A model generated the notes under the pieces. That model was not told the DNA's origin. It saw only the letters and a list, made by a program, of their open reading frames with translations, and ran no database searches. Below are positions 925 to 64,000 of a stretch of 64,000 nt of DNA, in pieces. Within the stretch, counting starts at the first letter, position 1. Each line of letters begins with the position of its first letter. Source of the DNA: an uncultured Verrucomicrobiae bacterium (GTDB lineage Bacteria; Verrucomicrobiota; Verrucomicrobiia; Chthoniobacterales; UBA10450); the NCBI GenBank assembly GCA_963726745.1, contig CAVSDR010000003.1, positions 736,001 to 800,000 of the forward strand, read 5' to 3'. A program made the translations under genes and the position numbers.

Positions 925-1611
925 ATGAGAACCACCCTCGCCCTGCTTTCCTGCCTCCTCACCACTGCGGCCCTGGCCGAGCCGATGCCCTACGCACCGA
1001 AGATCATGCCGGCTAATTTCTCCAGCGACATCACCCACCCGTTCTTCACCCTGCGAACGGGCAACACCTACACCTACCGCACGGCCGATGGTTCCGAGGT
1101 GAACAAGGTTTTCGTGACCGAGAAAACCCGGAAAGTCATGGGTGTGACCACGCGCGTGGTCTGGGATCGCGTCTGGCGCGCCGGAAAATTGATCGAGGAA
1201 ACCTACGATTGGTATGCGCAGGATCGGGCCGGCAACGTCTGGTATTTCGGCGAAGACTCGAAGGAATTCGAAGGCGAGTCCGTGAGCCGGAAAGGCTCGT
1301 GGGAAGCCGGCGTGAAAGGCGCGCAACCCGGCATCGTCATGCCGGCTAATCCGCAGCCGGGCGCGCCTTACCGGCAGGAGTACTTAAAGGGCGAAGCCGA
1401 AGACATGGCGCAGATCGTGAGCCTCAGCGAGTCCGTGAAAGTGCCGGCTGGTTCCTACAAAAATTGCCTCAAGACGAAGGACTGGTCCGCGATCGAGCCC
1501 AACAGCGTGGAGCACAAAATCTACGCGCGCGAGACCGGCTGCGTGGTCCTCGAGCTCGAGCACGGCGACCGCAAGCGAGTCGAGCTGATCTCGATTACCG
1601 GCCGTCGTTAG
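925..1611 (+). CDS. secreted hypothetical protein
   Basis: Signal peptide MRTTLALLSCLLTTAALA from ATG 925, followed by a conserved-looking core (ETYDWYAQDRAGNVWYFGE...GSWEAG...PG..YRQEY). Confidence 0.8.
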   Translation: MRTTLALLSCLLTTAALAEPMPYAPKIMPANFSSDITHPFFTLRTGNTYTYRTADGSEVNKVFVTEKTRKVMGVTTRVVWDRVWRAGKLIEETYDWYAQDRAGNVWYFGEDSKEFEGESVSRKGSWEAGVKGAQPGIVMPANPQPGAPYRQEYLKGEAEDMAQIVSLSESVKVPAGSYKNCLKTKDWSAIEPNSVEHKIYARETGCVVLELEHGDRKRVELISITGRR

Positions 1612-2101
1612 GCCCGGAAGCCACCGGCGCGGCGGACGCATTCTCGCGGCCTTGCCGGAAGGAGTGGACCATGAAAAAGCCCACGGCCACGCAGATGCAG
1701 GCGTCGGCGACATTAAAGGCCGGCCAGGGATGCGCGAAGGGCAGGTGAAGATCGAAGAGAAGGAAATCGATCACGTGCCCGTGCCAGAGGCGGTCGGTTA
1801 AATTTCCCAGGACGCCCGCGAGGAGCAGGGCGAGCGAAGTCTCGCGCCAGACGTCGGTGGTTTTCCGGCGCACGATCATGGTCACGATCGCGATCAGGGC
1901 CACGCTCGAGAGCGCGATGAAGAAGAGGTTGTTGTTCTTGAAAGAACCGAAGGCCGCGCCGGTGTTGGTCACGAAGACGAGCGCGAAGAATTCCGGGATG
2001 ATGATCCGCGGCTCCTCCGGCCCCACCTGGTGCAGCGCAAACCATTTGCTCACCTGGTCGAGCAGGTAGAGCGGCAGGGAAAGGAAAAGCACGAAACGCA
2101 T
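1595..2101 (-). CDS. lspA: lipoprotein signal peptidase II
   Basis: DQVSK, NTGAAFG, GNLTDR..GHVIDF and WPAFNVAD motifs. Confidence 0.96.
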   Translation of the reverse strand: MRFVLFLSLPLYLLDQVSKWFALHQVGPEEPRIIIPEFFALVFVTNTGAAFGSFKNNNLFFIALSSVALIAIVTMIVRRKTTDVWRETSLALLLAGVLGNLTDRLWHGHVIDFLLFDLHLPFAHPWPAFNVADACICVAVGFFMVHSFRQGRENASAAPVASGPNDGR

Positions 2102-2123
2102 CGGCTCCCTTTAGCGCGGGAGG

Positions 2124-2729
2124 ATGGCTTGCGCCACCGCGGGCGCACGCGTATCGCGGACCTCGGTGTTTTACCTCAACCGCAACGGCGAAACCCTCGG
2201 CCCCTACAGTCTGGCGGAAGTGCGCCAGCGGCTCGTGCGCGGCGAGATCGCGCCGGAGGATTATTGCTGGACTGAAGGCATGCCCGACTGGGTCCCGCTC
2301 GCGGAGAGCGAGCCCTTCCGCGACCGCAATGTCCCGGCTAAAGCCGCGCCTCCGATCGTGGGACCGCAGCGGGCCTCGCGGCGACTGTCCTCGATGCGGC
2401 GGAAGCCCTCGGGCTTCCGGGAATCGATGATCGCGCTGCCGGCGTTGCCGGAGACCGATCCGCGGCCAGCGCGCGTCTGGCTGCGACCGGAAATGCGCGC
2501 GCGGCTTCTGCTCATCGGCGGCGCGCTGCTCGCGCTTTATTTTCTCTTCTTCTTCCGCACGCGCCTCGACCTCCCGGCGAACGAGACCGCCGGCGTGGAG
2601 ATCATCCTCGGCCGTCCGGCCGCGAGCGCGCGCACGCCCGACCGCATCGCGGGCATTTTCCTCGGGCTTGCGCTTGCGGCGGCCGGCGGCGTCCTGCTCG
2701 CGAAACCGCGCCGCGCTACGGCGCGGTAA
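2124..2729 (+). CDS. GYF_2 (DUF4339) domain membrane protein; start uncertain
   Basis: YLNRNGETLGPYS...GEI...CWTEGMPDWVP GYF_2 pattern and two C-terminal hydrophobic segments. Confidence 0.78.
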   Translation: MACATAGARVSRTSVFYLNRNGETLGPYSLAEVRQRLVRGEIAPEDYCWTEGMPDWVPLAESEPFRDRNVPAKAAPPIVGPQRASRRLSSMRRKPSGFRESMIALPALPETDPRPARVWLRPEMRARLLLIGGALLALYFLFFFRTRLDLPANETAGVEIILGRPAASARTPDRIAGIFLGLALAAAGGVLLAKPRRATAR

Positions 2730-5700
2730 TCTGCAGCCGCAGGAAGCGTCGCGCGGCCGCGTCGAACGGCACCAGGTCGCGCACTTCCACGCGGAAGTCC
2801 GGGCCACTGCCGCTCTCGCCGACGAAGCCGGGACCACTCGTTAGGCCGCCGTGGAAGCTGCTGGCTAAATCGCTCCAGCGGTGAAGATCGCCCGAAGCTT
2901 GCACGGTGTAGCACAGATCGGTCGCCCGGGCGGAGCGATGAAACGTGAGCGCGAGATATTTTGCGCCGTCGATCTCGCGCACGGAGAGCAACGGGCGCCC
3001 GGCGGCTTCCGGCTTCGTCGGATCGAGGCCGAGCGCGTACTCCAGTAAGTTCGGAAGGCCGTCGAAATCGAAGTCGAGCTCCGGCGCAGCGTCGCTTCCG
3101 GTGAGCCCGTAGCCCGCGAGATAACTCTCCGTGCTTGTGCCCACCGCGACCGCGAACTCGCGCAAAACGGTCGCGCCGCAGGTGTCGGCTAACGAGACGC
3201 GCACCGTGAAAGGCGCGAGCGTGGCGTCCAGCCCGGGCGCAAGGGTAACCACACCGGTCGCCTGGTCGATCGTGATCGTCCCGCCGCCCGGCACGGTCTC
3301 GGGACGGACGAGCAACGGCGCGGCCGGGAGGTTGCCATTTGCGTCCGCCGGCGGGGCCGAAGGCGCGACCGCGACCGTGCGCCCGGCATTTGCATTCACT
3401 GGCGGGTAAGTGCCTAACGAGGGCGAAGGATTAGGCAGCACTTTCACGCTGATCTTCGCGCCCGCGCGGGCCCCGGCGTGGTCGGTCACGGTCAGCGTGA
3501 CTGGATAATCCCGGCCACTCGGCGCTGTCACCACCCGGCAATCCGCGGTCCCGCCCAGCGTGATCGCATTCCCAAAAACACTCGTGCTCAAGGCGATTCC
3601 CTCGGGCGCGTCGGAGACCGCGGCGCTGAACGGTCCCGCGCCGGCAACGCTCGCGACCACCGCACTGGCCGCGACCGGCGTGCCGCGCACGAGTTCCAAC
3701 GAACCGATCACGCCGAGCACGGGCGCGCCTTCCTCGGTGGCGATGGTGAAGTCCGCATCCGAAAGATCGAAGAAGATATTGCCGACCGCTTCGACCTTGA
3801 TCCGGCCCTGCGTGGTCGCGACCTCCGGGCCGCCCGGCAGGAGCACGCCGGCGCGGCCGACGTTCGGCACGTTTTCGGCGAGGACGAACGGGAAGGTGTG
3901 TCCGCCATCGGTCGAGAGCGAGATCTTCACGCTCGCGCAATTTACTGGCGGCGCGTCTGTGTTGGCCACGTTCCAGGTGATCGTCTGCGCGGAACCGGCG
4001 GGCACGGTGCCGCCGGCGTTGAAGGAAGTGATGGTGAATGGGCCGGCTAATGCGCTCGTCGTCACCGTGGTCGCGGCCCAGCTCGCTCCGCCGCCGCCGG
4101 CGCGATTATCCCGCACGGTCACACGGAAGTTCAGCGTGCGTGAAATCGTCGGCAAAATCTCGCCGGTCGCGCTCGCGCCGATGGTAGCCGGCGGGGCGTT
4201 GGCGTAGTCGAGCACGTATGGCAGCGCGGGGAAAACGCGCGTGGGACTGAGCGTGGGCGGGCGGGAACGGAAGACGGGATTCGTCCCATCGCTCGCGGGC
4301 GCGGCCGTGCTTTGCGCCGGGCCGAGGTCGAGCTCTTCCCAGCAATAGGTGAGCGTGTCGCCATCCGCGTCGCTCGCGCTCGCGGTGAGCGCGAACGGGG
4401 TGCTCACGGGAATGGTGAAAGCCGCCGGCGGACTAACGACTGGTGGATGATTGCCGGTGTTCTCGGAGAGCGCGCAATCGCCGCTGCCGGCCGCAAACGC
4501 GAGCATCTCCTCGGAGTTCCGCGCGTGAAAATAGTCGTCGCTATGTGGGGCGAGGTCGGTGATCACACCGCCCGCAGTGCAGATGCCGGCGTAGGCCATG
4601 ACCGTGCTCCCGCTGCCGACTTCATAGGCGTAGGCGCCCTGGCGATTACTGCCGCCGCAGTTGCCGATGTTGCTGTTAAAAGTGTGATGCCCGCCGAACT
4701 GGTGCCCGATCTCATGGGCCACGTAGTCGACGTCGAACGGATCACCTGTAGGCACGCTGCGGCCGGTCACGCCGCGCGCCTTGGCCTCGGCCAGGCAGAC
4801 CACGCCGACGCTCGCGATCCCGCCGCCGCCGGTGCTGAAGACGTGCCCAAGATCGTAATTCTGCGCGCCGATGACGCGGTCGAGATTGTCCTGGTTTTCC
4901 GCGAGCATGAGGCTGCCGTTGCTGTTCGTGTAGGGATCGTTCGCAGCGTCGAGGTAGACGATCTGGTCGTTCGTGGCGACCAGGAGGAAACGGATCGCGA
5001 GGTCGCGTTCGTAGAGCGCGCTCACCCGATTGACCGAGGTGACCATGGCGCTGAGCGCGCTCAAAACAGTCGGCGGTCCATTGCTGACGGCGCTGGCATA
5101 TTCGCCGGTGCAGGCGAGCGCGAGGCGATACTGGCGCAAGATGGCACCGCTCGATCCGGCCGCGGCGGCGCGCCCGATTTTGCTCTCGTTAGGCAACGGC
5201 AGGCAGCGAAGCGGCTCGGCGCGGGCGAAATCCGCCTTCCGGTAAACCACGTAGGCGCGATCGTCGTCGCGCCAGTAGGGATCGATGAAAACGTCGCCAC
5301 CTGGCGAAAGGATGATCGCATGGAAGCCATGCGGCGTGAGGTCGAGCCGCGCGCTCGCCGCAGGATCGTCCAGGCCTTGCGCGACGTAGGTTTTAATCGC
5401 GGGAAATTTCGCCGCCAGCTCCGGCTCCATCACCGGCGACTCCCGCACCGCGAAGCGCGCGAAGCGGCCATCCGGCAAAGGCAACTCCAACGTTGTCGCG
5501 GCCTTGGCCGAGACCAGCTGACGCTCGAGCGCCGGCCGATCCAGCTCGAGCACCCGGTATTTCTCCGGGACGATGTGCCGGCGCGCAGACGCGGCGGCGC
5601 CAGCGGCGCGGAGCATCGGCGTTTCGTCAATCGGCTGCCAAAGTCCCTGGCCAAAAGCGCTCGCGCCAAGGAGCCAGAGGAGGAGAAGCGCCGCGCGCAC
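2716..5700 (-). CDS. secreted reprolysin-like (M12) zinc metalloprotease with Ig-like and C-terminal accessory domains
   Basis: Signal peptide, prodomain, HEIGHQFGGHH zinc motif and GSTVMAYAG Met-turn. C-terminal DFDGLPNLLEYALGLDP...RRFLRLQITAP domain. Confidence 0.9.
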   Translation of the reverse strand: MRAALLLLWLLGASAFGQGLWQPIDETPMLRAAGAAASARRHIVPEKYRVLELDRPALERQLVSAKAATTLELPLPDGRFARFAVRESPVMEPELAAKFPAIKTYVAQGLDDPAASARLDLTPHGFHAIILSPGGDVFIDPYWRDDDRAYVVYRKADFARAEPLRCLPLPNESKIGRAAAAGSSGAILRQYRLALACTGEYASAVSNGPPTVLSALSAMVTSVNRVSALYERDLAIRFLLVATNDQIVYLDAANDPYTNSNGSLMLAENQDNLDRVIGAQNYDLGHVFSTGGGGIASVGVVCLAEAKARGVTGRSVPTGDPFDVDYVAHEIGHQFGGHHTFNSNIGNCGGSNRQGAYAYEVGSGSTVMAYAGICTAGGVITDLAPHSDDYFHARNSEEMLAFAAGSGDCALSENTGNHPPVVSPPAAFTIPVSTPFALTASASDADGDTLTYCWEELDLGPAQSTAAPASDGTNPVFRSRPPTLSPTRVFPALPYVLDYANAPPATIGASATGEILPTISRTLNFRVTVRDNRAGGGGASWAATTVTTSALAGPFTITSFNAGGTVPAGSAQTITWNVANTDAPPVNCASVKISLSTDGGHTFPFVLAENVPNVGRAGVLLPGGPEVATTQGRIKVEAVGNIFFDLSDADFTIATEEGAPVLGVIGSLELVRGTPVAASAVVASVAGAGPFSAAVSDAPEGIALSTSVFGNAITLGGTADCRVVTAPSGRDYPVTLTVTDHAGARAGAKISVKVLPNPSPSLGTYPPVNANAGRTVAVAPSAPPADANGNLPAAPLLVRPETVPGGGTITIDQATGVVTLAPGLDATLAPFTVRVSLADTCGATVLREFAVAVGTSTESYLAGYGLTGSDAAPELDFDFDGLPNLLEYALGLDPTKPEAAGRPLLSVREIDGAKYLALTFHRSARATDLCYTVQASGDLHRWSDLASSFHGGLTSGPGFVGESGSGPDFRVEVRDLVPFDAAARRFLRLQITAP

Positions 5701-5703
5701 GGA

Positions 5704-8407
5704 TTACTCCCGCTGGCTTACGACCTCGTCACAGCGATCGCAGAGTTCCGGGTGCGCGCTGGATTTGCCGACACTTTCACGGTGCCGCCAGCAGCGGGCG
5801 CACTTGGCAAATTCCGTCTTCGCGATCGTCGCGGCCGCGGCGTCGCCGGGCTCGACCGTCAGATCGCTAAGGATGAAAAACTCCTCGAGTTCCTCCTTCG
5901 AGATGCCGGCTAAAACTTCGCTGCTGGCCTGCAGACGCACCGCGCCTTCGAGCGCGTTGCCGATGAGTTTTTCCTGGCGGGCCTGCTCGACCGCCTGCCC
6001 GATGAGGCCGCGCAGCCGAAGCAATTCCGCAACCGCAGCTTCCGCCGGCGAATCGCGCAAGGAGTCGTTAGGTTGCGGGAATTCCTGGAGATGCACCGAG
6101 CCTTCCCGGCCGAGGTAACCCCATGCTTCCTCGGCGGTGAAGGCGAGGATGGGCGCGAGCAATTTAGTCAGCGACTCGAGGATTTCGCGCATCGCGAATT
6201 GGGTCGCGAGGCGGCGCGGCGAACCGGGCGCATCGCAATACATTCGGTCCTTGGTGATGTCGACGTAGAGACTGCTCAGGTCGACCGCACAGAATTGATT
6301 GAGCGTGTGGTAGACCTTGTGGAACTCGTAGTTCGCGTAAGCCTCGCGGCATTCGGCGATCACGCTCTGCAAGCGGCTCAGGATCCAGCGATCGACCAGC
6401 GTTGGCGCGCCTTTTTCGCCACTCTTCGCGTCGATGTTGCCCAGGAGAATGCGGATCGTGTTCCGGATGCGGCGATAGGTGTCGCCGAGGCGCGTGAACA
6501 TTTCCTCCGAGAACGGGACGTCGTCGGTGTAGTTCACGCTGCTGACCCAAAGGCGGACGATATCGGCGCCGTGTTTGCCGACGAAATGGCCGGCATCCAT
6601 CGGCTTCGAGTAGCTGCTCGACTTGGAGATTTTTTTGCCGTCGACATCGACCACGAAGCCGTGCGTGACGCAGGTCTTGTAAGGAGCGCGATCGTGCAGC
6701 GCGACGCTGGTCATAAGCGACGACTGGAACCAGCCGCGGTGCTGGTCGGTCGCCTCGAGATACATGTCGGCCGGGTTGCGCAGCTCCGGGCGGACCGCGA
6801 GCACGGCCTGGTGGCTCATGCCGCTATCGATCCAGACGTCGATCGTGTCGTTGCGGTGGCGCGTGCCCTCGGGCAGGCCGAGTTCGCGCGCGAGCGCGGC
6901 GTCGTCGAGCTCGAACCAGATGTTCGAGCCGCGCTGCCTAACGAGTTCTGCGAGCTTGCGGATCCAGTCGGCGTTCAGGAGCGCCTGGCCGTCGGCATCG
7001 TAGAAAACGGGGAGCGGCACGCCCCAGCTCCGTTGACGCGAGATGACCCAATCCGGGCGCGACTCGACCGTGCCGGAGATGCGCGCTTCGCCCCAGGGCG
7101 GAATCCATTTGGCGTCTTTGATCGCAGCAAGCGCCGGCTCGCGGAGCTGGTTGATCCGGATGAAAAACTGCTCGACCGCGCGGAAGATGATCGGCGTTTT
7201 CGAGCGCCAGCAATACGGGTAGCTGTGCTGATAGTTTTCCTCCGCGACGAGCATGTCGTTCGTCGCGCAGGAGCGCGACGATGTCGGCGTTGGCGTCGAA
7301 GACATATTTGCCGACGAGATCAGGGAGGCCGACTTCCTCGGTGTAGCGCCCGAGGCTGTCCACCGGGGAAAGGATCGGGAGGCCGTTGCGATGGCCTAAC
7401 GAGTAATCGTCCTCGCCGTGGCCGGGCGCGATGTGCACGCAGCCGGTGCCGGTGTCCATGGTGACAAAATCAGCCGTCAAGATGATCGCGGTGCGCGGGA
7501 GGAACGGGTGCTGCGCGCCGACGCCCTCGAGCTTGGTGCCGGGGAAGGAGCGGCCCGGCTCGCCCACCGGTTCCCAGCCGGTCGCGGCGCAGAATTTCTC
7601 GACCAACGACTCCGCGAGGATGAGCGTCTCGGTGCGACCGTCCTTTTGGAATTCGCGCGCGACGTAAAGTTCCTTCGGATGAATCGCGATCGCTAAATTT
7701 GCCGGCAAGGTCCAGGGCGTAGTCGTCCAGATGACGATGCTCGCCTTCCCTTTCCACTCGCCGGTGGCGATGGGGAATTTCACATAAACCGCGGTGTCTT
7801 CGCGGTCGTGGTATTCAACCTCGGCGACCGCGAGCGCGGTCTGCGCGCCGGTGCTCCAGAAGACCGGCTTTTTCGATTCGTAAACGAGGCCCTTCTCGAC
7901 GAAAACGGCGAACGCCTTCAGGATCTCCGCCTCGTAAGCCGGGTCGAGCGTGAGATAGGGATTCTCCCAGTCGCCGAGCACGCCGAGGCGCTTAAATTGC
8001 CCGCGCTGGATCTCGACGAAGCTGCGCGCAAAGGCCTCCGAGCGCTGCCGCACTTCCACCGGCGAGAGGCCGCGCGTTTCCTTGACCACCTTGTATTCGA
8101 TCGGGAGCCCGTGGCAGTCCCAGCCCGGCACGTAGGGCGCGCGAAAGCCGAGCATGGTCTTCGATTTCACCACCAGATCCTTGAGGATCTTGTTCAGCGC
8201 CGTGCCCATGTGGACATCGCCATTCGCGAACGGCGGGCCGTCGTGCAGGACGAACAACTCCGCGCCGGCGCGCGCTTTTTGAATCTGCTGGTAAAGCTGC
8301 GTCTCCTCCCAGGTCTGGAGGATCTCCGGTTCACGAGTCGTTAGGCTCGCCTTCATCGGGAAGTCCGTTTTCGGGAGGAGGAGGGTGTCCTTGTAATTGG
8401 CAGGCAT
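5704..8407 (-). CDS. ileS: isoleucyl-tRNA synthetase (type 1), split by one apparent frameshift near 7264
   Basis: LHDGPPFANG, GWDCHGLPIE, WTTTPWT, GTGCVHIAPGHG, DWVISRQR, DQHRGWFQSS and a C-terminal CARC..CDRC zinc finger. ORFs 6938-8407 and 5704-7305 join at LLR(D)NDMLVAEE. Confidence 0.96.
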
Positions 8408-8624
8408 CGCGGAGCGGCGACGCTACCACCGAAAGCGCAGAGCGAAAAGGGAGAGCCCGGGCGGACATCGGAAAGGGTCGCGGCGCTTCCCTTACCCACT
8501 TGTAACGCTCGGGTAACCCTCAGGTCAGAGTGCTGGCTAAAAATCCCAGAACTCCTCGAAGGCTCCGTCTCCTCACGGATCTCCCCGGAATTCATTTCAA
8601 CCCTACCGCCTCTCCCTCTCTCGC

Positions 8625-11600
8625 ATGAGCCAAGTCATCCTCCAATCCTCCCGCCAGTTCACGGCCGCCGCGTTGATCATCTGCGCCGTGGTCCTCGCGT
8701 TTATTTCCTTCGCCGATCACTCGCGCTCGGCCGCGCCGGAAAACGGCACGCTCAACCCCGCCGGCCCGAGCGTGAGCTGGACCGGCACTTCCGCCGGCGG
8801 TTCCTCGCTGGACGAATCGACCTGCGATGCGCTCGATGCGGTCAATTGCGACACCTACATCCTGACCGTGGGCGGCACGCCGGCGGATTGGGCCGGGAAA
8901 AAAGTAAACGTCAAGATCAGCTGGCCCAATGGCCTGGATGACTACGATGTCTTCATTCACAAAGGGACGGTCAACGGCCCCGTGGTCGGCTCGGCCGCGG
9001 CGGGCGGCAGCGGGCCGGAGGAAGTGGACCTCGATCCGACCAATGCCTCCATCGGCACCGGCGCTTTCGCGGTGCGGGTGGTTTACTTCCTGGTGACGCC
9101 GCCGGCGGAGCAGTACACCGGCGTCGCAAGCGTAAAGGGCGGCGGCGCGACCCCGACGCCCACGGCCACGCCGACGCCGAGCGGCACACCTTTGACCGCA
9201 AATGTCCCGCGTTACGTGAACCATTACGCGCCACCCGGCGTGATGGAAGATGCGGGCGAGCCGACCATGGGCGTGAATTGGAACACGGAAAATGTGGTCC
9301 GCGCCCCGTGGCAAACTTTCCAAAACCGGCTGCGCAACGGCACCGTGCTCCAGACTTTCAACGGCGGCACCTCGCTCTACTACGGCGGGATTAACAGCTA
9401 CTTCCTCCGCGCGACCTTCGACGATTGCGCCTCGCCCGCCGGCGTCCAGTGGGACCAGATCCCGCTGGTGACCGCGAATACCACGCGCGGCTTCTACGAT
9501 CCGATTCTTTACACCGATCACTGGACCGGCCGCACGTGGGTGGGCCAGGAGCTCGGGCTGACGCCGGGCGGCAGCACGCTCGAGTTTACCGATAACGACG
9601 GCGACACGATGCACCCGAGCGAAGGCGCTGCGCCTTCGGGCGGGGTCGATCACCAGACGATCGGCGGCGGGCCGTTCCACGCGCCTACTCCGCCGACCAC
9701 GATCACGCCGAAGAATCCGCCGGACCCAGCGGCCACGCCTTACCCGCACTCCGTCTTTTACGCGTCCCAGGCGATCCTGACCGCGACCAGCCAGCTGAGT
9801 TTAGACGGCGGCTTCAGCTTCCCGGTGCAGACGCCGATGTATACCTGGCAGGATTGCACCGGGCTCCACGGCCACATCAAAATCGCCGAGGACGGCACCG
9901 CCTTCGTGCCGAACAAGGCCTGCGAAGAACTCAATGTGCCGTTTGTCTTCGGCGGCAATCCCGCGGTCGTGGTCTCGGAGGATAACGGCGCGACCTGGGA
10001 CATCCGCACCGTGCCCGGCATCCCGAGCGATGCCGGTTTGGACGACGCCTCTGTGGGCGTTTCGTGGTGCCCACCGAACACGCCCACCTGCGACAAGACC
10101 GAGCGGAGCAAGCACATTTACCTCGGCTTCATGTACACCGGCGGCCGGCCCGGCATCGCCTATTCGAACAACAAGGGCCAAAGCTGGGCCCGCATCGTGG
10201 ATCTCGGCGCCCTCACCGGGATCAAGCACATCGCTTTCCCGGCTGTAGCCGTGGGCGATCCCGACCGCGCAGCCTTCGCCTTCTTCGGCACGAAGACGCA
10301 GGGCGATTACAGCGCACCGGAGTTCCCCGGCGTGTGGCACATGTATATCGCGCAGACGTTCGATTACGGCCAGACCTGGACGGTGCAGAACGTGAGCCCG
10401 GAAGGGCCGATCCAGCGCGGCGGCATCTGCGGCGATGGCACCTGCCGAAACCTGCTCGACTTCATCGATATCCAAATCGACCGGCAAGGCCGCGTGCTGG
10501 TCGCAGGGGAAGATGGCTGCATCGCCGGCTGCGAAATCGGCGGGGCAAATTCCTTCACCGCGAAGGCGTTCATCACCCGCCAGGCCGGCGGCAAACGCAT
10601 GTTCTCGATCTACGACACCCAGACGGCCGAGCCGCACATCCCCGGCGCGCCCGGCGTGCAAGGCTTTGTCGACGCCGCCAATACCAAGGTCACGCTCAAC
10701 TGGACTCCACCGGACCACGGGGGCGCGCCGATCACAGCCTACAAGATCTACCGCGCAACCGCGGAGGCCGGTCCCTGGGGGAACGATAAGCTCATCGCCA
10801 CGGTCACGGAACCCGGTTTCATGGACACCAGTTTCCCGCCGGCGATGGAGAAATATTACATCGTGACCGCGATCAATTCGCAGGGTGAAAGCCCCTACTG
10901 CAAGGTGATCCATCCGCTCGACGTCCCGCAAGTGACAGCTTGCAACCTCCCCGGCATCCAGGTGCTGAATGACACTGATGCGAATGGCGCGGATACCGAT
11001 CCGCCGCAGCAAACCCCGGCCGATCCGCGGGTAAACGTCCGCCGGCTCCACCTGGCAGAGCCATTCGTCAGCCCCGGCGCCGAGCCGCTCGTCTTCACCA
11101 TGCAGGTGGCTCCCTCGACCACGAACACCGCCCCGCCGAACAGCCAGTGGCTCATCATTTGGAATCGCCAGGGCACGCATGCGGCCGATCCGCAGGACAG
11201 CTCTTACGACCGCATGTATGTCGCCATGGTCACGGATGCGAACGGCGTCCCGACGTTTGAATACGGGAAGTTTGGCATCGCGATCAACACTTCGCCGCCG
11301 CCCCTGCCCGACCCGAATGCGAACGCTCCAAAGCGTTACGGCGCGCCCGATAGCGCGACCTACGATCCGCTCAGCGGCCTCGTCCGGATCACGATCGCAA
11401 AGTCGAAGCTGCGCGCGATCGATGGCGGCAGCGGCAAGTATGTGATCAACACCGACCTCGCAGGGACGAACGTGCGCACTTACTTCAACCGCGCCGACTA
11501 CGTCTCCGATCCAAACGCGGCGGTGCGCTCGCAGCGTTCGCAAAACAATGCTTCCGATATCACCAGCGACGCGACCTACACCCTGCGCGGGAACGCGGTT

Positions 11601-12170: not shown

Positions 12171-12282
12171 ACAGCAAGATCAGATGACCTTCGCCCCTGT
12201 CCGCCCCTCCGGAACCAATCAGGAAACCTGGTGACCGCGGCCGCGCGCGCTGCCCGGTAACGCGGCCGCGCGACCGCAGATC

Positions 12283-12317
12283 AAAAAAAATCGGCGCCGG
12301 GGTTTTCCCGGCGCCGA
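12283..12317 (-). terminator. Rho-independent terminator
   Basis: Stem TCGGCGCCGGG/CCCGGCGCCGA preceded on the + strand by an A8 run (U-tract on -), just after the stop of 12342-15620. Confidence 0.85.
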
Positions 12318-12341
12318 CTTCCAAGGGGGTGATCTTGCTGG

Positions 12342-49726: not shown

Positions 49727-49727
49727 C

Positions 49728-52076: not shown

Positions 52077-52128
52077 GGGTCGATCAAAATTGCTTCGCGC
52101 GCCTTCCGGTGTTACGCCAGTAACCCCG

Positions 52129-53091: not shown

Positions 53092-53109
53092 CGAGTCCAG
53101 CCGCCGCCC

Positions 53110-56188: not shown

Positions 56189-56270
56189 CGCGTACCTCGT
56201 TGCATCCCGCCGTTCGCATGATTTCCTCTGGCCATCGGCGCGCGCCAAGATGCCGCGCAAAATCGTTTTC

Positions 56271-57074
56271 ATGAAGAAAATCTTTCTCACCGGCGCCAGC
56301 TCCGGCATCGGGCGCGCCACTGCGGAGCTGCTCTGCGCGCAAGGCCACGAAGTCTGGGGGACTTCGCGCGAGCCGGCGCGGCTTCCGGCGCTGGCCCGCC
56401 TCCATCCGGTGCGTCTCGATTTAACCGAGCCCGCTTCGATCGCGGACGCGTGGGAGCGCGCGCGCGCGGAAGCCGGCGGCTTCGAGGTGGTGATCAACAA
56501 CGCCGGCGCCGGGCACTTCGATCCCGCGGCCACGCTTTCCGCGGAAACGCTCGCGCGGCAATTCCAGCTCCTGCTCTTCGGGCAGATCGAAATTAGCCAG
56601 CAAGCTCTGCGCGCCTGGCGCACCCAGCCGCGCGGTTTGTTGATCAATGTGACCTCGCTCGCGGCGCGCCTCCCGATGCCTTTCAGCGCAGCCTACAATG
56701 CGGCCAAAGCCGCCATGTCCGCCTACACCACCACGCTCCAGCTCGAGCTGGCCGGCTCCTCCGTGCGCGTGGTCGACCTGCAACCGGGCGACATCTCCAC
56801 GGATTTTAACGACCACCTCACGCGCGCTCCAGCGCTGGACGCGCAAGACGCGGCCGCGATGCAACGGGCCTGGGAAGTGATCCAGCGGACGATGCAAAAA
56901 GCGCCGCCGCCAGAGTTGGTCGCGCGGGAAATTGCGCGCCTTCTGGAACGGGCGCATCCGCCGGCACGCGTGACCGTGGGCGACCCTTTCCAGCGCACCT
57001 TCGCGCCCGCGATCTTTGCGCTCCTGCCTCCCACCTGGCGCATCTGGGCGCTGCGCCGGCACTACAAACTTTGA
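56271..57074 (+). CDS. SDR family oxidoreductase
   Basis: TGASSGIG, INNAG and YNAAK. Confidence 0.93.
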   Translation: MKKIFLTGASSGIGRATAELLCAQGHEVWGTSREPARLPALARLHPVRLDLTEPASIADAWERARAEAGGFEVVINNAGAGHFDPAATLSAETLARQFQLLLFGQIEISQQALRAWRTQPRGLLINVTSLAARLPMPFSAAYNAAKAAMSAYTTTLQLELAGSSVRVVDLQPGDISTDFNDHLTRAPALDAQDAAAMQRAWEVIQRTMQKAPPPELVAREIARLLERAHPPARVTVGDPFQRTFAPAIFALLPPTWRIWALRRHYKL

Positions 57075-57814
57075 GCTCGCCCGCACTCGCACCGACCGAC
57101 GCCGTCATCCTCATGGCCGGCGCCGGGTCGCGCCTGGGCCCGGCCAGCGGAGCCCTGGCCAAGCCGCTCGTCCCCATCGCCGGCCGGCCGTTGATCGCGC
57201 ACACCCTCGATCCTCTCGCCGCCCTCGGCGTGCGCACGCTGCACATCATCACCGGCGCGAATGGCTCGCAGCTCGCCCAGGAAATCGCGCGTCTGCTTCC
57301 GGAAAAGATGGCGCTGAACGCGATCGCGAATCCCGCGTGGGAAAAGCAGAACGGTGTCTCCGTGCTCTGCGCGCAGGGCGCGGTGCGGGCGCCATTTTTC
57401 CTCGCGATGGGCGATCACCTTTTCGACGCGGCCGTTTTCCATCGCCTCCTCCAAGGCGCCGAGCCGGCGCAGCTCAACCTTGCGATCGATCGCAAGGTCG
57501 CCGCCGTCTTCGACCTGGACGACGCCATGAAGGTGGTCACGCGCGACGAGCAGGTGGTCGAAATCGGCAAAACGCTGCCTGTTTATGATGCGATCGACAC
57601 CGGCCTTTTTCTTTGCCCCGATGAGTTGTTCGACTACCTGCGACGCGCGCAACGCGCGGGCGATTGCAGCCTGGCCGATGGCGTGCGCCTGATGGCGGCC
57701 GACCGGAAAGTGCGCGCGGTCGACATCGGTGCCGCCTGGTGGCAGGACGTGGACACGCCCGAGATGTATGCACAGGCCGAGGCGCACTTCCGCGTGCGTC
57801 AGAGCGCGCGCTGA
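57071..57814 (+). CDS. NTP transferase, inositol-1-phosphate cytidylyltransferase (IPCT)/LicC-like
   Basis: ILMAGAGSRL..KPL, NG.SVL, MGDH, DDAMKV..IGK.L..YDAIDTG and WQDVDTPE. Confidence 0.85.
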   Translation: MSSPALAPTDAVILMAGAGSRLGPASGALAKPLVPIAGRPLIAHTLDPLAALGVRTLHIITGANGSQLAQEIARLLPEKMALNAIANPAWEKQNGVSVLCAQGAVRAPFFLAMGDHLFDAAVFHRLLQGAEPAQLNLAIDRKVAAVFDLDDAMKVVTRDEQVVEIGKTLPVYDAIDTGLFLCPDELFDYLRRAQRAGDCSLADGVRLMAADRKVRAVDIGAAWWQDVDTPEMYAQAEAHFRVRQSAR

Positions 57815-58940
57815 AAGATCCGGTAGGTCTTGTAACGCTGCGCGCCGATCGCCTCGAGGAAGCGATTGATCAGCCGGTTGTTCTCCAGGGTCATGCTCAA
57901 CTCGCCGACCCACCCGCGCTTCACCATTCCCTCCTCGATCACCCGCAGCACGAGCGTTTCCGCGATCCCGAAGCGGCGAAACTTCGGCACCACGCCGAGC
58001 GCGACCAGGCGTCCGCGCTTCAGCCGGCTCTTGTGCCAGAGCAATTTAGCCAGCGGGATGGGCAGGCCATAACTCGTTAGGCGGCCGTTGATTTTTTGAA
58101 AGGCGGCGTTGATGTCGGGCACCGCGAGGATGAATCCGGCCGGCTCGCCGTTCACCTCCGCGACCAGCACCAGCTCCGGCATCGCCAGCGGCTTCAGCTC
58201 CTTCACCAGGTGATCGAACTCCGCTTCGGTGAAGGGGACGAAGCCCCAGTTCTTCTGCCAGGCCTGGTTGTAAACCGCGCGCAGCCCGGCGGCCTCGTCT
58301 TTGATCCGCGAAGATCGATCGGGCGAATCGTGACCTCGCTCTTGTCGCCGAAGCGCGTTGCGATCTTGCGCAGGCGCACCGCTGCTTCCGCGGGCTCGGC
58401 AAACCACCAGGCATACCAATCGATCGCCTTCTCGAAACCCGCGCGCTCGATCAGACCGCGGTAATACGGCGGATTGTGCGGCGTGAGCAGCGTCGGCGGA
58501 AACTCAAAGCCATCGATCAGGAGCGCGCAGACATAATTCGTCGAGTAATCGATCGGCCCCATGATCTCGCGGCGGCCGCGCGCGCGCAGCCAATCGCTCG
58601 CCGCCGCGAAGAGCGCGTCGGCTACCGCCTGGTCATCGATCGACTCAAACAAGCCGAAGCAGCCGACATTCGACCCGTGCTCGGCGTTGTAGTTCGGGTC
58701 GTCGCTCGCCATGATCCGGCCGACGATTTGGCCGCCGCGCCGCGCGAGAAAGAGCTCCGCAGCGCCATGCTCGTAGAAGGGATGCTTCGCGCGATCGAGA
58801 AAATCGCGCCGCTCCAGGATCAACGGCGGGACCCACGCCGGATCGCCGCGGTAGATCTGCCAAGGGAACTCGATGAAGACGTCGCGCTCGGCCTTGGACC
58901 GGACCGGAGTGATTTCGATCTGCGCCACGTCAGCGCCCAT
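57799..58940 (-). CDS. GNAT-fold N-acyltransferase resembling bacterial ceramide synthase (bCerS/YghO family); frameshift near 58308
   Basis: FIEFPWQIYRGDPAWVPPL, HPF, VGRI, FGLFESIDD, GP...STN, HNPPYY, AWQKNWGFVP, PDIN and ELSMTLENN. Confidence 0.8.
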
Positions 58941-59020
58941 CTCGCTGGGCGACGGCACCGGCGCAAGGCGGAAATGCCTTTGCAGCCGCGCGCAAAACTG
59001 CGTAGTAGCACGGCCTTCCC

Positions 59021-59891
59021 ATGCCGCCGCAGGCCTCATCGACCAACGCGCCCGGGCTCGCTTTCCAAGCCCGCGAGATCGAGGAACTGGCGGACGTTTA
59101 TTTCTTCCGGCCGCTCGGCATCCTGATCGCGCGCCCCGCGGCGGCGCTCGGCTTGCACGCCGACACAGGTGACGTGGGCGAGCATGGTGATCGGGATCGC
59201 CGGCGGCACGTTGCTCTACCGGCCGCAGACTTACGGCCTGGCGGCTTTCGTTCTCTTGATCGTCTACAGCATCTTCGACTCGGCCGACGGCCAGCTCGCG
59301 CGCCTAACGAATCAAGCGAGCGAGTTTGGCCGCGTGCTCGACGGCGCGATCGGCTACGTGGTTTACACCGCGGTCTACCTCGCGCTCACCCTGGGGCTGC
59401 TGGAGCGCGGCGCGCCGCCGGCTATCGTGGTGGTGATGTTGCTGGCTGTTTTGTCGAACATCGCCCAGGCGCAGATGTACGAATACCACCGGCACCAATA
59501 CGTCATGGTCGTGGTCAAAGGCCGCGTCCTCCTGGACGACCCGGCGAAGGTCCACTCGCCGCTGGTCGCCTGGATTTACCAGCGCTATCTCGCGATGCAG
59601 CGCGCGCTCAATGGCCTCCATGTCGAGGTCGAGCGGACGCTCGCGGCGCGTGCGGAAAATGGCGTCGTCCCGGAGCGCGACCGCCTGCGCTATCGCCAGC
59701 ATTTCTACTGGCCGGTGCGCGGCTGGAATTTGCTCGGCGATAACACCCGCTTCTATGCCATCGGGGTGCTCGCGTGGTGCGGTCGGCTCGATCTCTTTTT
59801 CCTCGTCCTCCTTTTACCGCTTAACCTCGCGCTGGCCGTCCTCTGGTTTTGGCAACGCCGGGCCGACCGCGCTTTTCTCCGCGAGCCATGA
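59021..59891 (+). CDS. CDP-alcohol phosphatidyltransferase; frameshift near 59156
   Basis: EE.AD.YFFRPLG, TPTQVT and DSADGQLARLT..SEFGRVLDG. Confidence 0.88.
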
Positions 59892-60559
59892 TCCGGACGA
59901 TCTTCTTCGATCTTGGCGGCACGCTTGACGGCAGCGGCGGCCACTGGCTGGAGCGTTTTCTCCGGCTCTACCGCGCGGCTGGCTTGGAACTCCCACGCGA
60001 AACTATCCGCGGCGCCTTCGACTTTGCGGAACGCCGCGCGGCTACAGACGACGAGATCGCGTCGGCTAATTTTGCGCAGATGGTCGCGCTCCATGTGCGC
60101 TGGCAACTGGAACATCTCGGGTTGCCTAACGAATCGCTCGCGCAAACCCTGGTCGCAGGCTTTGTCGAGCCGGTGCGCCCGGCCGTCGCGGAAAACGTGC
60201 GCCTCCTGCGCGAGCTGCACACGCGCGGCTTCACCCTCGGCGTGATCTCGAATGGCTGCGGCAACGTCGCCGCGCTTTGCGAAGATTTTGGCTACGCGCC
60301 CTTTCTCGCGCTCACGCTCGACTCGCGCCGGCTCGGCCTTTCCAAACCCGATCCCGCGATCTACCGCCACGCCGTCGCGCAGCTCGGTGGAGAAACAGGC
60401 AGCATGCTCATGGTCGGCGATTCTCTCGAGCGCGACATCTTGCCGGCTAAATCCATCGGCCTGCAAACCGCGTGGCTCGACGACTCTGCCATGCCGAGCG
60501 ATCCCGCGGTCGACTTCCGCCTGCGCACACTCGCGGAATTGCCGGCGCTTTTACGATGA
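59888..60559 (+). CDS. HAD-family hydrolase
   Basis: FFDLGGTLD, ISN, KPDP and VGDSLERDI. Confidence 0.92.
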   Translation: MIRTIFFDLGGTLDGSGGHWLERFLRLYRAAGLELPRETIRGAFDFAERRAATDDEIASANFAQMVALHVRWQLEHLGLPNESLAQTLVAGFVEPVRPAVAENVRLLRELHTRGFTLGVISNGCGNVAALCEDFGYAPFLALTLDSRRLGLSKPDPAIYRHAVAQLGGETGSMLMVGDSLERDILPAKSIGLQTAWLDDSAMPSDPAVDFRLRTLAELPALLR

Positions 60560-62031
60560 AAGCCGGCATCCTGGCCGCGGGTCGCGGCGAACGTTTGCTC
60601 CGCGCCGCGCCGCTGAAGCCGCTGGCTAAAGTCGGTGGCCGCGCCTTGATCGAGCATGTTCTGCACTCGTTCGCCGACGCAGGCGCAATCGAGGTGACGA
60701 TCATCATCAACGCGGACTCGAGCGCGGTGCGCGACTTTGTCGAAGGGCGGAACTGGCCGTTCGCTCTCCGCTGGATCGTCGAGAGCACGCCGACTTCGAT
60801 GCACAGTTTCCTGCGGCTGGTGGAAACGCTCGCGGCCGGCGGGGACGACGGGCCGTTTCTCCTTTCGACCGTCGATACCGTGGCCGGGCCGCAAACCTAC
60901 CGACGCTTCTTTGCCGCCGCGCAGGCGAGTGCGGCGGACGTGACCCTGGCCTTGACCGCGCCGGGCGATGACGAGAAGCCGCTGCTTGTCCGGCTGGAGG
61001 ACGCGCGCGTCAGCGCGATCGGAAAAGAGGCAGCGGGTTCGGCGCACGCCACCGCGGGAATTTACGCCGTCCGCGCGAGCGTCCTGCGCGAGGCCACCGC
61101 GAGCGCGGGGCTCGGGGCGCTCCGGGAATTTCTTGGGCGACTGCACACGCGCGGCTACCGGCTCGAAGGGATTCCCATCGAACCGACGATCGACGTCGAC
61201 CGCCCGGCCGACCTCGAGACGGCGGCGCGATTTTTTAGCCGGCGACTTGTGGGAATTTATCGCGAGCCGGAATACTCGCCCGGGCGCCACCTCTCGAACG
61301 ACGCCATCCTGCTCGACCAGATCGCGGCGCGCCTGGAGAACGTGGAGCTGCGGCAAATCGAGGAGCTGCCGGAGCAACCGGCGGCGGCGCTGATTTTTTC
61401 CATGTGCCAGGGGCGCGCCGCGCTCGAGCGGCTCGCGGAATGGGAACGCGCCGGCGCGCGGATCGTCAATCGCCCGGAAGCCGCGCGCAACACCCACCGC
61501 GATCGCCTGCCCGGGCTCCTGCGCGCGGCCGGGCTTCCTTTCCCGCGGACCGAGCTGGTCGAGACGCGGGGCCAGCACTCGTTAGGGGAAATCGGCGCCG
61601 GCCTTTGGCTGAAGCGCGGCGACGTCCACGCCTCGGTCGCAGCCGATGTGCAATGGCTCGACTCCGCGGAGCGGGTGGAGGCCGGGCTGGAGGACTTCGC
61701 GCGGCGCGGGATCGAGCGCGCGGTTTTGCAGGAACACCGCGCGGGCGATGAGGTGAAATTCTACGGCGTCGGCCCGGGCGAATTCTTCCATTGGTTCTAC
61801 TCGCGGGAAGCGGCCGGTCATCCGCTGGACGAGAGGGCGCTGGCGGAGTTGGCCGCGCGCGCTGCGACGGTCTGCGGGCTGGAGATTTTTGGCGGCGACA
61901 TGATAATCGGGCCGGACGGCGAACTGACCTTGATCGACCTGAACGACTGGCCTTCCTTTGCCCCCTGCCGCGAAGCAGCGAGCGCGGCGATTGCCCAACA
62001 CCTCCGGAGACGCACCCATCATGTTGCTTGA
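60556..62031 (+). CDS. NTP transferase fused to an ATP-grasp-like domain
   Basis: ILAAGRGERL..KPL, STPTSMHSF, STVDT, DDEKP and DVDRP. Then WLKRGD, VLQEH..GDEVKFYGV and GLEIFGGD..IDLNDWP. Confidence 0.82.
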   Translation: MKAGILAAGRGERLLRAAPLKPLAKVGGRALIEHVLHSFADAGAIEVTIIINADSSAVRDFVEGRNWPFALRWIVESTPTSMHSFLRLVETLAAGGDDGPFLLSTVDTVAGPQTYRRFFAAAQASAADVTLALTAPGDDEKPLLVRLEDARVSAIGKEAAGSAHATAGIYAVRASVLREATASAGLGALREFLGRLHTRGYRLEGIPIEPTIDVDRPADLETAARFFSRRLVGIYREPEYSPGRHLSNDAILLDQIAARLENVELRQIEELPEQPAAALIFSMCQGRAALERLAEWERAGARIVNRPEAARNTHRDRLPGLLRAAGLPFPRTELVETRGQHSLGEIGAGLWLKRGDVHASVAADVQWLDSAERVEAGLEDFARRGIERAVLQEHRAGDEVKFYGVGPGEFFHWFYSREAAGHPLDERALAELAARAATVCGLEIFGGDMIIGPDGELTLIDLNDWPSFAPCREAASAAIAQHLRRRTHHVA

Positions 62032-63328
62032 AGAAAAATCGTCCACGCAGAGCCGCGCGCTTTTTGCCGAGGAGCAAAAGCACATCGCGCCGGGCATCCA
62101 GACGATCGCGCTCCTCTCCGAACTAACGATCGCGCACGGCCGCGGAAGCACCCTCACCGATGTCGATGGCCGGACGTATCTCGACTTCAACGCCGGCGTT
62201 TCCGTGGCCAGTCTCGGGCATGCGCATCCGCGCTATGTCGCGGCGATGACCGCGCAACTGCAGGCGGTCACAGTAGGGAGTTTCACTTCGCCAGCGCGCG
62301 CGGAATTAGTGCGGCTGATCGCCGAGCTCACGCCCGGGGAGCTCACGCGCACGCAGTTTTTCAGCGGTGGCGCGGAGGCGGTGGAAGCAGCTTTCCGGCT
62401 GGCGCGTTCTTACACCAAGCGCACCGAGATCATCGGTTTCACCCACGCCTTCCACGGCAAAACCGCGGGCGTCCTGCCGATCTCCGACGTCGACTGGAAA
62501 CACGACGTCGGTCCACTGGCGCCGCATCACCCGATCGCGCCTTTCCCCGACCCGACGCGCTTCGACGGCACCCCGGAGGAATGCGCGCAGCACTCGTTAG
62601 GGGAATTGCGCCGCGTCATCGAAGAACAGGCCGGCGGGCGGCCGGCGGCGATCATCATGGAGCCGATCCAGGGGACTGCGGGCAACATCGTGCCGCCGCC
62701 GGGATTCTTTGCCGCGGTCCGCGCGATGGCCACGGAGTATGGCGCGCTTTTGATTGCCGACGAGATGATCACTGGCTTCGGGCGCACCGGACGGATGTTT
62801 GCCAGCGAATGGGACGGCGTGATCCCGGACATCCTGACCGTGGGCAAAGGGATGGCCGCGGGCTACCCGGTCAGCGCAGTCATCTCGACCGACGAGATCA
62901 TGGCCGCGAAGCCGTTCTCGCTCCCGAGCGCCTCTTCTTCGAGCTATGGTGGAAATCCACTCGCGGCCGCGGCGGTGTTGGTCACCTTGCAGACGATCGT
63001 GGAGGAAGACCTGACCGCGCACGGCGCGAAAGTCGGCGCCATTTTGCAGGATGGCTTGCGCGCGCTGGCGGAGAAACACGGCACGATCGCGCAGGTGCGC
63101 GGACGCGGCTTGCTCGTCGGTTTTGACCTGGTCGAGCAAAATAGCCAGCAAGCTCTCTGGCCGAAGCCGCGCTGCATCGAGTTCTTTCAGCGTTGCCTGG
63201 CCGAGGGACTAATCATGATGAGCTACACGCCGCGGGTGCGGGTGCATCCGCCGCTGATCCTGCGCGTGGAGGAAGCGGAGCGCGGGCTCGCGATCATGGA
63301 TCGCGTGCTCGGAGAGATGGGCGCCTGA
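62021..63328 (+). CDS. class-III PLP aminotransferase
   Basis: DVDGRTYLDF, SGGAEAVE, FHGKT, EPIQGTAG, LIADEMITGFGRTG, PDILTVGKG and YGGNP. Confidence 0.94.
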   Translation: MLLEEKSSTQSRALFAEEQKHIAPGIQTIALLSELTIAHGRGSTLTDVDGRTYLDFNAGVSVASLGHAHPRYVAAMTAQLQAVTVGSFTSPARAELVRLIAELTPGELTRTQFFSGGAEAVEAAFRLARSYTKRTEIIGFTHAFHGKTAGVLPISDVDWKHDVGPLAPHHPIAPFPDPTRFDGTPEECAQHSLGELRRVIEEQAGGRPAAIIMEPIQGTAGNIVPPPGFFAAVRAMATEYGALLIADEMITGFGRTGRMFASEWDGVIPDILTVGKGMAAGYPVSAVISTDEIMAAKPFSLPSASSSSYGGNPLAAAAVLVTLQTIVEEDLTAHGAKVGAILQDGLRALAEKHGTIAQVRGRGLLVGFDLVEQNSQQALWPKPRCIEFFQRCLAEGLIMMSYTPRVRVHPPLILRVEEAERGLAIMDRVLGEMGA

Positions 63329-64000
63329 TGCTGCGCGGCGCGCTGGTTGGTTTCGGAAACGTCGCAGAGTTCGGTCACTGGCCCGGCTACCGGGAGAACG
63401 ATGCGGTTGAACTCGTGGCGGTGGTCGACGCCTCGCCCGCGCGTCGGGCGCGCGCGCAAGAGCACTCGTTAGCCGCCTACGCCTCGCTCGCGGAGATCCC
63501 GGAGGGCACGATCGATTTCGTCGATATCTGCACGCCGCCGGCGCAACATGCGCGGGCCGATGCTGGAGGCGCTTGCGCGCGGCTGGCACGTGCTTTGTGA
63601 AAAGCCGTTCCTGCTCGACGCGGCCGTGCTCGAGGAAGTGCGCGCGCGCCGGGGCGAGCTCGCGGTGATGCCGGTGCACAATTGGAAATACGCGCCCGTC
63701 ATCCGCGCGGCCAAGCAACGCCTGCCGGAACTGGGCCCGCTCCGGCGCGTGGAAATCCAGACCCTGCGGATGGAAGACGCCGCGGCCGCCGATTCCTCCA
63801 ACTGGCGGCGCGACCCGGCGATCGCCGGCGGCGGCATCCTGCTCGATCACGGCTGGCATTCGCTCTACCTCGCGCAACATTTCTTCGAGGCGGTGCCGCG
63901 GGAAATTAGCGCGCAACTTCATCGCCCGGCACCGGGCGCGGCGGAGGACGAGGCCATCGTGGAACTTGAGTTTGCCGAGGGAAGCGCGCGGATCGAGCTC
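63328..64000 (+). CDS. Gfo/Idh/MocA oxidoreductase, frameshift near 63553, 3'-truncated by window edge
   Basis: LVGFGNVA and DFVDICTPP, then HVLCEKP and WR.D...GGG.LLDHG.H in the next frame. Confidence 0.88.

Follow-up and report, generated by a model that had tools for sequence, protein, structure and literature searches.

A hyper-abundant, uptake-sequence-like DNA word in a soil family of Verrucomicrobiota and in parts of the Gemmatimonadaceae

The 64,000-nucleotide stretch analysed here (positions 736,001 to 800,000 of contig CAVSDR010000003.1, assembly GCA_963726745.1; hereafter the window) stems from an uncultured bacterium of the GTDB family UBA10450 (order Chthoniobacterales) within the Verrucomicrobiota, which we take to be the Candidatus Udaeobacter family. 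It is densely occupied by a short DNA word, termed motif A, that recurs throughout the source genome (G000; 3.41 Mb, 7 contigs, 95% complete) and is a real, family-wide and cross-phylum DNA signal. Motif A is a DNA-level word that originates from in-place substitutions and that selection or drive maintains, at silent positions too. We infer with high confidence that it is a real, selected signal bound by a specific protein. By resemblance, it may work like the DNA uptake sequence (DUS) of the Neisseriaceae and the uptake signal sequence (USS) of the Pasteurellaceae.

The original prediction had counted 19 exact copies of CCTAACGAG and about 40 CTAACGA/TCGTTAG cores in the window, and a recount returned the same figures (19 copies, 12 on the plus and 7 on the minus strand; 40 cores, 19 and 21). 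In 100 dinucleotide shuffles of the window CCTAACGAG occurred 0.20 times on average and at most twice, and none of the shuffles attained 19. Each of the 40 CTAACG in the window has A as its next base. The CTAACGA core named at the outset is fixed; the longer word proposed around it had to be corrected to the full consensus GCCTAACGAGTnnW, with G at -2 (87%), C at -1 (75%), G at +7 (64%), T at +8 (44%) and W at +11 (71%), where the conserved flanks end. Written as one sequence, motif A reads GCCTAACGAGT. The enrichment extends genome-wide, with 45-70 cores per 100 kb on each of the seven contigs. CTAACGA was found 2,025 times where an order-3 Markov model expects 194, and GCCTAACGA 1,312 times where it expects 19.7. 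Gene-level figures are approximate and refer to our own gene set (3,062 genes, own hexamer model, 86% coding). Coding sequences (CDS) hold 971 copies of GCCTAACGA, compared with 13.3 after genome-wide synonymous shuffling (20 runs, maximum 19) and 23.0 after synonymous shuffling within genes (10 runs, maximum 27). The excess over codon-preserving shuffles is therefore 40-70-fold, or about 70-fold by the genome-wide shuffle.

The word leaves marked traces in the coding sequences. Most cores (1,558) lie within predicted CDS, where they use four stop-free frames, 305 are intergenic and 162 are situated at gene edges; inside CDS 609 cores are in sense and 949 in antisense orientation. Cores supply 312 of the 1,355 CTA codons and 671 of the 2,906 TTA codons (23% in each case). 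The rare-codon examples on which the original prediction had built are all present in the sequence, namely L-V-R (6937), D-Y-S-L-G (7395) and A-S-L-T-T (8337) in ileS, D-S-L-G at 38976 and P-N-E at 46521. Among tripeptides ranked by enrichment, PNE is third (z 15.5) and SLG fourth (z 13.7). A stop codon falls inside the core at 312 of the 2,025 sites (185 TAA, 127 TAG).

Conservation of the sites confirms that a miscall is unlikely, as had been argued from the two ileS leucines. The nearest relatives of G000 are ~81% identical, and the ileS sites recur in independently assembled orthologues of 78-81% nucleotide identity (Table 1), so the bases of the word are real. The core at 6065 is kept in two of the nine orthologues. 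A search for public reads of the organism itself found none, and one run with a word share of 0.10 represents relatives only. Beside these sites, ileS (window 5704-8500) has an extra base near 7262 that is seen in none of the nine orthologues and splits the gene into two frames; it is probably an assembly indel, and frameshift-like breaks were also noticed in several further genes of G000. Across 708 aligned blocks, 79 sites are identical, 22 differ by one base, 254 by two to six bases, and only 8 of the 363 have gaps in the core. The sites therefore originate by substitution in place. Identical sites made up 67 of 164 in motif-rich relatives versus 13 of 176 in motif-poor ones, a comparison that may be biased because the motif-rich set includes loci chosen for bearing sites. 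In motif-rich relatives, the identity of synonymous codons is 0.58/0.88 inside sites versus 0.46/0.54 outside (codons with A or T/G or C at the third position, AT3/GC3). The shuffles, the sharing between orthologues and the conservation at silent positions support the original view of a DNA-level signal and not an effect of miscalls, codons or peptides.

The arrangement of motif A along the chromosome is equally distinctive. Its orientation is independent of local GC skew, which serves here as a proxy for the replichores (657 versus 689, p 0.40). Strand skew is likewise absent in samples of genomes G272 and G683; an apparent skew in G683 was an effect of how sites had been listed (115 versus 135 in 400 kb). 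No periodicity was detected between 5 and 150 kb (p 0.21 on contig C3 and 0.73 on C6, 300 spacing shuffles). Pairs of motif A sites 12-250 bp apart number 149, compared with 286 expected under a null of uniform density per contig, and pair counts are normal again by 300-400 bp. This depletion is found in every orientation and persists without the stop-codon sites; six control words, whose counts are small, have no consistent short-range dip. The benefit of motif A thus saturates over ~300 bp, and orientation is irrelevant. The emptiest 10-kb tiles are mostly of low GC (57-62% versus 64%), and motif A is scarce in islands as defined by low GC alone. The four genes longer than 5 kb contain 2.1 sites per 10 kb versus ~6 elsewhere.

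These data bear on a first group of explanations, in which the word would be a replication-polar signal (Chi, KOPS or primase sites), the outcome of codon or peptide preferences, what is left of a repeat, or an artefact of sequencing. Chi and the FtsK-orienting polar sequences (KOPS) are short, asymmetric, over-represented words that are read by DNA-processing proteins and are strand-polarised. Motif A is a short, asymmetric and abundant word too, but without strand polarity in G000, G272 or G683. The bias toward antisense cores in CDS and the indel errors elsewhere in the assembly could be taken as hints of such an origin. However, four tolerated frames are used, the shuffles abolish the excess, independent assemblies share the sites, and conserved flanks do not continue past +11. 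One-mismatch variants at the inner C-T-A-A-C positions stand at background level in a motif-masked model, where GCCTAACAAG is a genuine minor variant of motif A (93 versus 0.9), and no single-substitution neighbour is common enough to be the source of a miscall (0-11 for the inner variants versus 405 for CCTAACGAGT). An explanation of this group is hardly credible: artefact, codon effect, Chi or KOPS function and a periodicity of the HIP1 type are ruled out by the shuffle, orthologue, skew and periodicity tests.

Within the Verrucomicrobiota the word is restricted to the one family. GCCTAACGA is enriched in all 24 members of the genus examined (138-2,412 copies; 22 of 22 without the unpublished G001 and G008). 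Outside the family, 16 genomes of the order have 1-19 copies, and none of 199 genomes from other families of the phylum exceeds 18. In 250 genomes drawn from the family the count ranges from 13 to 4,633, a ~350-fold range in density; by hand tally, 214 have at least 100 copies and 57 at least 1,000, among the latter all 35 genomes of genus g40. This draw includes nine unpublished genomes (G001, G008, G042, G046, G164, G197, G221, G223 and G266), without which the numbers are 206 and 53 of 241. In a record with the title Ca. Udaeobacter sp., 211 copies were counted in 2.2 Mb. When GTDB was scanned for paired motif A sites, at least 114 loci came up, a sample and no census, so that further lineages may exist. 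Among the 114 matches listed, 101 are titled Verrucomicrobiota, nine Gemmatimonadaceae or Gemmatimonas, and four belong elsewhere; these four and one Verrucomicrobia record have 9-18 copies per genome and were set aside as chance, repeats or cassettes. Seven metagenome-assembled genomes (MAGs) of Gemmatimonadaceae among the matches listed carry 519-3,882 copies versus 44-83 for controls, and in eight of 200 further Gemmatimonadota drawn the word occurs at least 96 times, with copies on both strands (four unpublished genomes were drawn, none among the eight). Viral loci (36 from four scans) comprise two with dispersed copies (L349 and L244, a temperate-type phage record with 15 cores in 20 kb on both strands) and two integron-array-like ones (L350 and L353, IMG/VR viral records with apparent cassette arrays), the rest being near chance except L354. 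Both phage records with dispersed copies carry integrases; over the whole record one has an excess (G678, temperate type, 43 copies versus 4 for the control in 41 kb) and the other has none (G677, SCTAACG, 18 versus 25). Among the leading matches of a literature search, no published account describes this word as a motif of genomes from either phylum.

Two families of host-associated bacteria are the established bearers of sequence-specific uptake tags (PMC3630211). USS occur in Pasteurellaceae and DUS in Neisseriaceae, with ComP as receptor and ComN/PpdA predicted (PMC3630211, PMC2817400, PMC7811141, PMC2397512, PMC12616744). The profile of motif A matches theirs point by point, which is why an uptake-type drive is favoured. 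Like USS and DUS, it is a non-palindromic word of 9-12 bp whose inner core is strict and whose flanks are soft, is present in thousands of mainly genic copies on both strands, enriches tripeptides, is conserved, is scarce in recently acquired DNA, gains little or nothing from a close second copy and, within the Verrucomicrobiota, is confined to a family with lineage variants. Uptake sequences are described to enrich tripeptides and to be absent from genes without homologues (PMC2817400). For Haemophilus influenzae, no added uptake is described from two USS within 100 bp (PMC7811141), the spacing of DUS agrees with conversion-tract length (PMC2397512), and DUS form dialects and close inverted pairs (PMC3630211). 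We therefore read motif A, tentatively, as an uptake-sequence-like signal that may have spread by biased uptake and recombination. Of the corresponding claim in the original prediction, the statistical part stood: the non-palindromic form, the lack of skew and the presence of a comEC/dprA/pilus gene set fit this reading best. A receptor, however, was not found. The abundance of the word in Gemmatimonadaceae, the integron match of its core and the coexisting second motif go beyond the original prediction.

If motif A functions like a DNA uptake sequence, a sequence-specific protein would bind it, and a receptor that belongs to the pilus/ComEC route, at the surface or in the periplasm, would prefer word-bearing DNA fragments. 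Homologous recombination would then fix alleles that gain the word and purge alleles that lose it. The word would thereby spread wherever coding permits, rare codons and stop codons included, copy spacing would be set by the scale of short transforming fragments, and recently acquired islands would stay empty. A second word in G000 (motif B) and a third in another genus (motif C; both described below) might represent further receptors or dialects, gained and lost by lineage. The sharing with Gemmatimonadaceae would require a transferred or convergent receptor. In line with such a route, G000 encodes full-length ComEC and DprA, two PilB, PilC and a PilT-like ATPase, and 16 pilin-type N-termini score over the Pfam cut-off. 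The ~350-fold range in density across the family also counts in favour of this reading.

Several results weigh against an uptake role. ComEA is represented in G000 by a 30-residue helix-hairpin-helix (HhH) match alone, in an apparently broken frame, and comEC, present in 237 of 251 family genomes with motif-poor members included, does not discriminate. No receptor was found in the profiles of two pilin candidates. DUF7305 PilX-like clusters occur in the motif-free outgroup G031, and a search of G013 and G024, both motif-rich, did not find them; pilin g797 is distributed order-wide, in five of six other families, and was found in none of 12 Gemmatimonadota. Apart from GspG, no pilin globular domain is common to G000 and two motif-rich Gemmatimonadaceae. 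Two features of USS and DUS are missing, the close inverted pairs and the restriction to a family. Unlike the DUS described in the cited account (PMC3630211), G000 has no excess of close inverted, terminator-type pairs, which amount to 0.34-0.38 of expectation below 100 bp. The word is not restricted to one family, being hyper-abundant also in the seven Gemmatimonadaceae MAGs, and self-recognition is hard to reconcile with two phyla having the identical word. The self-avoidance, calculated under the uniform null mentioned above, is less pronounced in G272 (0.64-0.74 at distances below 200 bp) and in G201 (~0.8), and the excess in phage record G678 would fit an intracellular reader equally well. 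Motif A also differs from USS and DUS in that two independently spaced words share one genome and in that its core equals the core of integron attachment (att) sites.

Some of the pilus genes deserve mention on their own account. The DUF7305 genes form two paralogous PilV/W/X-like clusters (G000:C3:584422-586936 and C6:623578-626133) that are patchy and multi-copy in the genus, and one of them interrupts the gene run prs-rplY-pth. They gave no significant PDB match and were tentatively likened to Thermus ComZ (PMC6561018). Pilin g797 has a weak N-terminal ComP match (E 0.00095) under the cut-off.

Alternatively, the word might be bound by an intracellular sequence-specific protein such as a nucleoid organiser, a repair or strand-discrimination factor or a defence self-mark, although we consider this somewhat unlikely. 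One bound site would then cover ~300 bp, selection would fill the chromosome and resident phages evenly, and the gene would have moved between soil phyla. The strict conservation and the orientation-independent self-avoidance would agree with such a protein, as would the dispersed copies on both strands of two temperate-type phage records, the sharing of the word across phyla and the finding that no receptor pilin tracks it. On the other hand, a range of 13-4,633 copies among close relatives is odd for an essential structural signal, a 5-150 kb periodicity is missing, and the count in phage record G677 does not exceed its control. Moreover, when pairs of basic paralogues were screened and ~0.4 Mb of DNA from Gemmatimonadaceae, which covers little of those genomes, was compared with the genes of G000, general housekeeping matches alone came up and no candidate gene.

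A further possibility would be a mechanism in the manner of cyanobacterial highly iterated palindrome 1 (HIP1), in which a methyltransferase and biased repair make or keep the sites. HIP1, GCGATCGC, is a palindrome with a 10-90 kb periodicity whose function is not established in the account cited (PMC5861425). Like motif A it is hyper-abundant and conserved inside as well as between open reading frames (ORFs; PMC5861425), but motif A is asymmetric and has no periodicity at 5-150 kb. G000 does encode an orphan beta-class, CcrM/Dam-like methyltransferase with an SPPY motif (G000:C3:981251-982042; L368:5251-6042) that turned up in 16 of 16 genomes of the family and in none of six other families of the order. 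As a reader it was rejected: it is present in motif-poor members and was found in none of 14 Gemmatimonadota, and three of five motif-rich Gemmatimonadaceae have no match to its family PF01555. The word is non-palindromic with soft flanks to +11, and mutational bias alone predicts neither self-avoidance nor conservation at silent sites. Methylation and repair are thus a very improbable cause. Separately, GTAC is strongly depleted in G000 (1,322 versus 8,476), and a C5 enzyme and fragments of type I M were noticed close to the ends of contigs.

The resemblance to integron att sites is of another kind. CTAACGAG, the 8-bp core of motif A, is the attI/attC core of the family's integrons. The family attI reads ..TCTC G|TTAG RY, with CTAACGAG on the opposite strand, at nine of 12 loci with the attI end in view, and at two others a single base of the core deviates; 18 of 19 attC left ends read CTAACGAG, in a search that required CTAACGA. 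Evenly spaced same-strand matches in motif-poor genomes are cassette arrays with attC starting with GCCTAACGA, as in G028, G325 and G281, from other soil lineages, and the relaxed 3' end seen in the logo of G272 has a parallel in that genome's own att-like sites. In addition, L292-L294 and L326-L336 show a conserved family attI, in which an imperfect palindrome lies upstream of the crossover, as well as a homogeneous attC family of 96-129 bp. The shared core, the cassette arrays and the G272 logo, together with the integron integrase IntI in 142 of 251 family genomes (three matches being unpublished genomes), could indicate that the reader is the integron integrase system or a descendant, the word being an attI/attC R-box plus spacer that IntI or a derivative binds or writes; close pairs would be purged because they recombine. 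GTTRRRY is the shared att core (PMC8876359), and the motif A consensus agrees with it (GTTAGGC on one strand); IntI is described to recombine chromosomal attG sites (bioRxiv 2022.09.11.507474).

Much speaks against this integron origin, however, and we regard it as doubtful. Genomic copies are lone half-sites without L box, hairpin or cassette, they arose by substitution inside essential genes, and they do not track IntI. Their flanks differ (G-2, C-1, T+8, compared with A-2 84%, T-1 74% and A+8 100% in attC), ATCTAACGA accounts for just seven of 2,025 cores, and 21% of cores depart from the RYYY rule by having G or A at -1. The source genome, 95% complete, has no functional IntI and, apart from XerC/XerD, just a decayed fragment of intI that contains a stop and an insertion (G000:C2:58500-58900, L370), yet the sites of this genome show no decay. 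Conversely, the motif-poor G062, G218, G150 and G080 carry IntI, and density within the genus does not differ with IntI presence (14 versus 13 genomes, p 0.68, three unpublished ones excluded). By a rough arm score G000 contains no attC arrays or high-scoring arm pairs, R''-R' oriented pairs are depleted, half-sites are near background level, and inspection revealed no match between motif B and att parts. A dif/XerD connection was also considered, and a pattern search gave no clear dif site. The match to the att core itself is real.

A mobile reader that derives from, or converges on, the integron core may have been acquired separately by the Verrucomicrobiota family and by parts of the Gemmatimonadaceae, each then rewriting thousands of coding positions, with motifs B and C as tags of further readers. 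We offer this scenario as speculative and on the whole unlikely. If true, two soil lineages that rank among the commonest have a single DNA tag in common across phyla, phages and cassettes included.

Motif B (17 bp, SAWnKYGYYGGCTAAWT) appears at similar density once motif A is masked. In CDS genome-wide, GCTGGCTAA occurs 377 times versus 23 after synonymous shuffling and GTCGGCTAA 263 times versus 10. Motif B avoids itself (0.67-0.84) but not motif A (A-B pairs 1.03-1.26, undepleted); therefore the two act as separate signals. Its distribution is patchy: GYYGGCTAAW clearly exceeds the control in three of 41 genomes (G000 958, G011 394, G015 254) and falls below it in the A-rich G013 and G024. 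Motif C, CAAGATCGACAAT, is dispersed in the motif A-poor G072 of another genus (L016-L020; its 9-mers occur 29-31 times versus 1.5-2.8 in 84 kb) and weak in G148. In G028 (L069-L072), of a different family, ATGGAACTC occurs 14 times versus 1.0 expected in 80 kb and is possibly another lineage word. G272, with the logo YGCCTAACG(A/C), has its own second word, CAGSTGCAAC; CAGCTGCAA (62 versus 3.1) and CAGGTGCAA (24 versus 2.5) at L309-L324 resemble the right arm of its attC.

Sites of both motifs in the window are listed in Table 1. Between 8625 and 37578 the window holds a tandem cluster of large predicted secreted proteins with few motif A copies, and Rfam gave no match within the window. Elsewhere, G000 encodes two Ku-like proteins (g1568 and g3057, N-termini judged by eye) and a tRNA-SeC at C5:34716.

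Table 1. Motif A and motif B sites and related features in the window (window coordinates).
Feature	Position	Strand	Remarks
Motif A in ileS, most conserved site	7395..7403	+	antisense; D-Y-S-L-G via TCG TTA GG; in 8/9 orthologues of other assemblies
Motif A in ileS	6937..6945	+	antisense; L-V-R via CTC GTT AGG; in 4/9 orthologues, all motif-rich relatives
Motif A core in ileS	8338..8344	-	sense; L-T via CTA ACG; in 2/9 orthologues, one-mismatch form in 1 more
Motif A cores, starts	3189, 3414, 4433, 6938, 7396, 29260, 36641, 40795, 40861, 41749, 41963, 43216, 46522, 47294, 53088, 55301, 59304, 60126, 62123	+	n=19; span of all cores 1605..63472
Motif A cores, TCGTTAG starts on plus strand	1605, 2838, 5186, 6065, 8338, 11620, 21750, 32091, 32199, 32594, 38977, 45276, 45738, 47916, 48314, 51855, 53197, 58074, 61579, 62594, 63466	-	n=21
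Motif A core ending two convergent predicted genes	55301..55307	+	TAA for plus-strand gene (ends 55304), TAG for minus-strand gene (ends 55301); own gene calls
Motif A-free stretch of 10 kb	11627..21749	.	65% GC; coincides with large, repetitive proteins predicted to be secreted
Motif B pattern matches, starts	1002, 1335, 2854, 5899, 8526, 15780, 19787, 31982, 39624, 41667, 45666, 46511, 48331, 49904, 51431, 54187, 60055, 60436, 60615	+	span of all 40 matches 1002..63155; loose pattern without window-level chance control, some of the 40 being chance
Motif B pattern matches, low coordinates	3429, 6162, 9799, 12165, 14434, 16613, 22604, 23181, 23590, 24947, 33773, 37245, 37500, 45277, 47917, 53615, 54437, 56591, 58044, 61233, 63139	-	n=21
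Hybrid A/B site	46511..46529	+	overlap on common GnCTA; further hybrids at 45276 and 47916 on minus strand

Motif A is a tag-like word that spans at least 250 species of one soil family and shapes codon use, stop codons and peptides in its members. Because it recurs letter for letter in another phylum, comparison can be used to test whether kin recognition or a by-product of receptor bias is at work. Two phyla with both motif-rich and motif-poor relatives, together with the patchy second word, offer a contrast for finding the reader, and the word itself is usable as a marker for binning and for linking phages to hosts.

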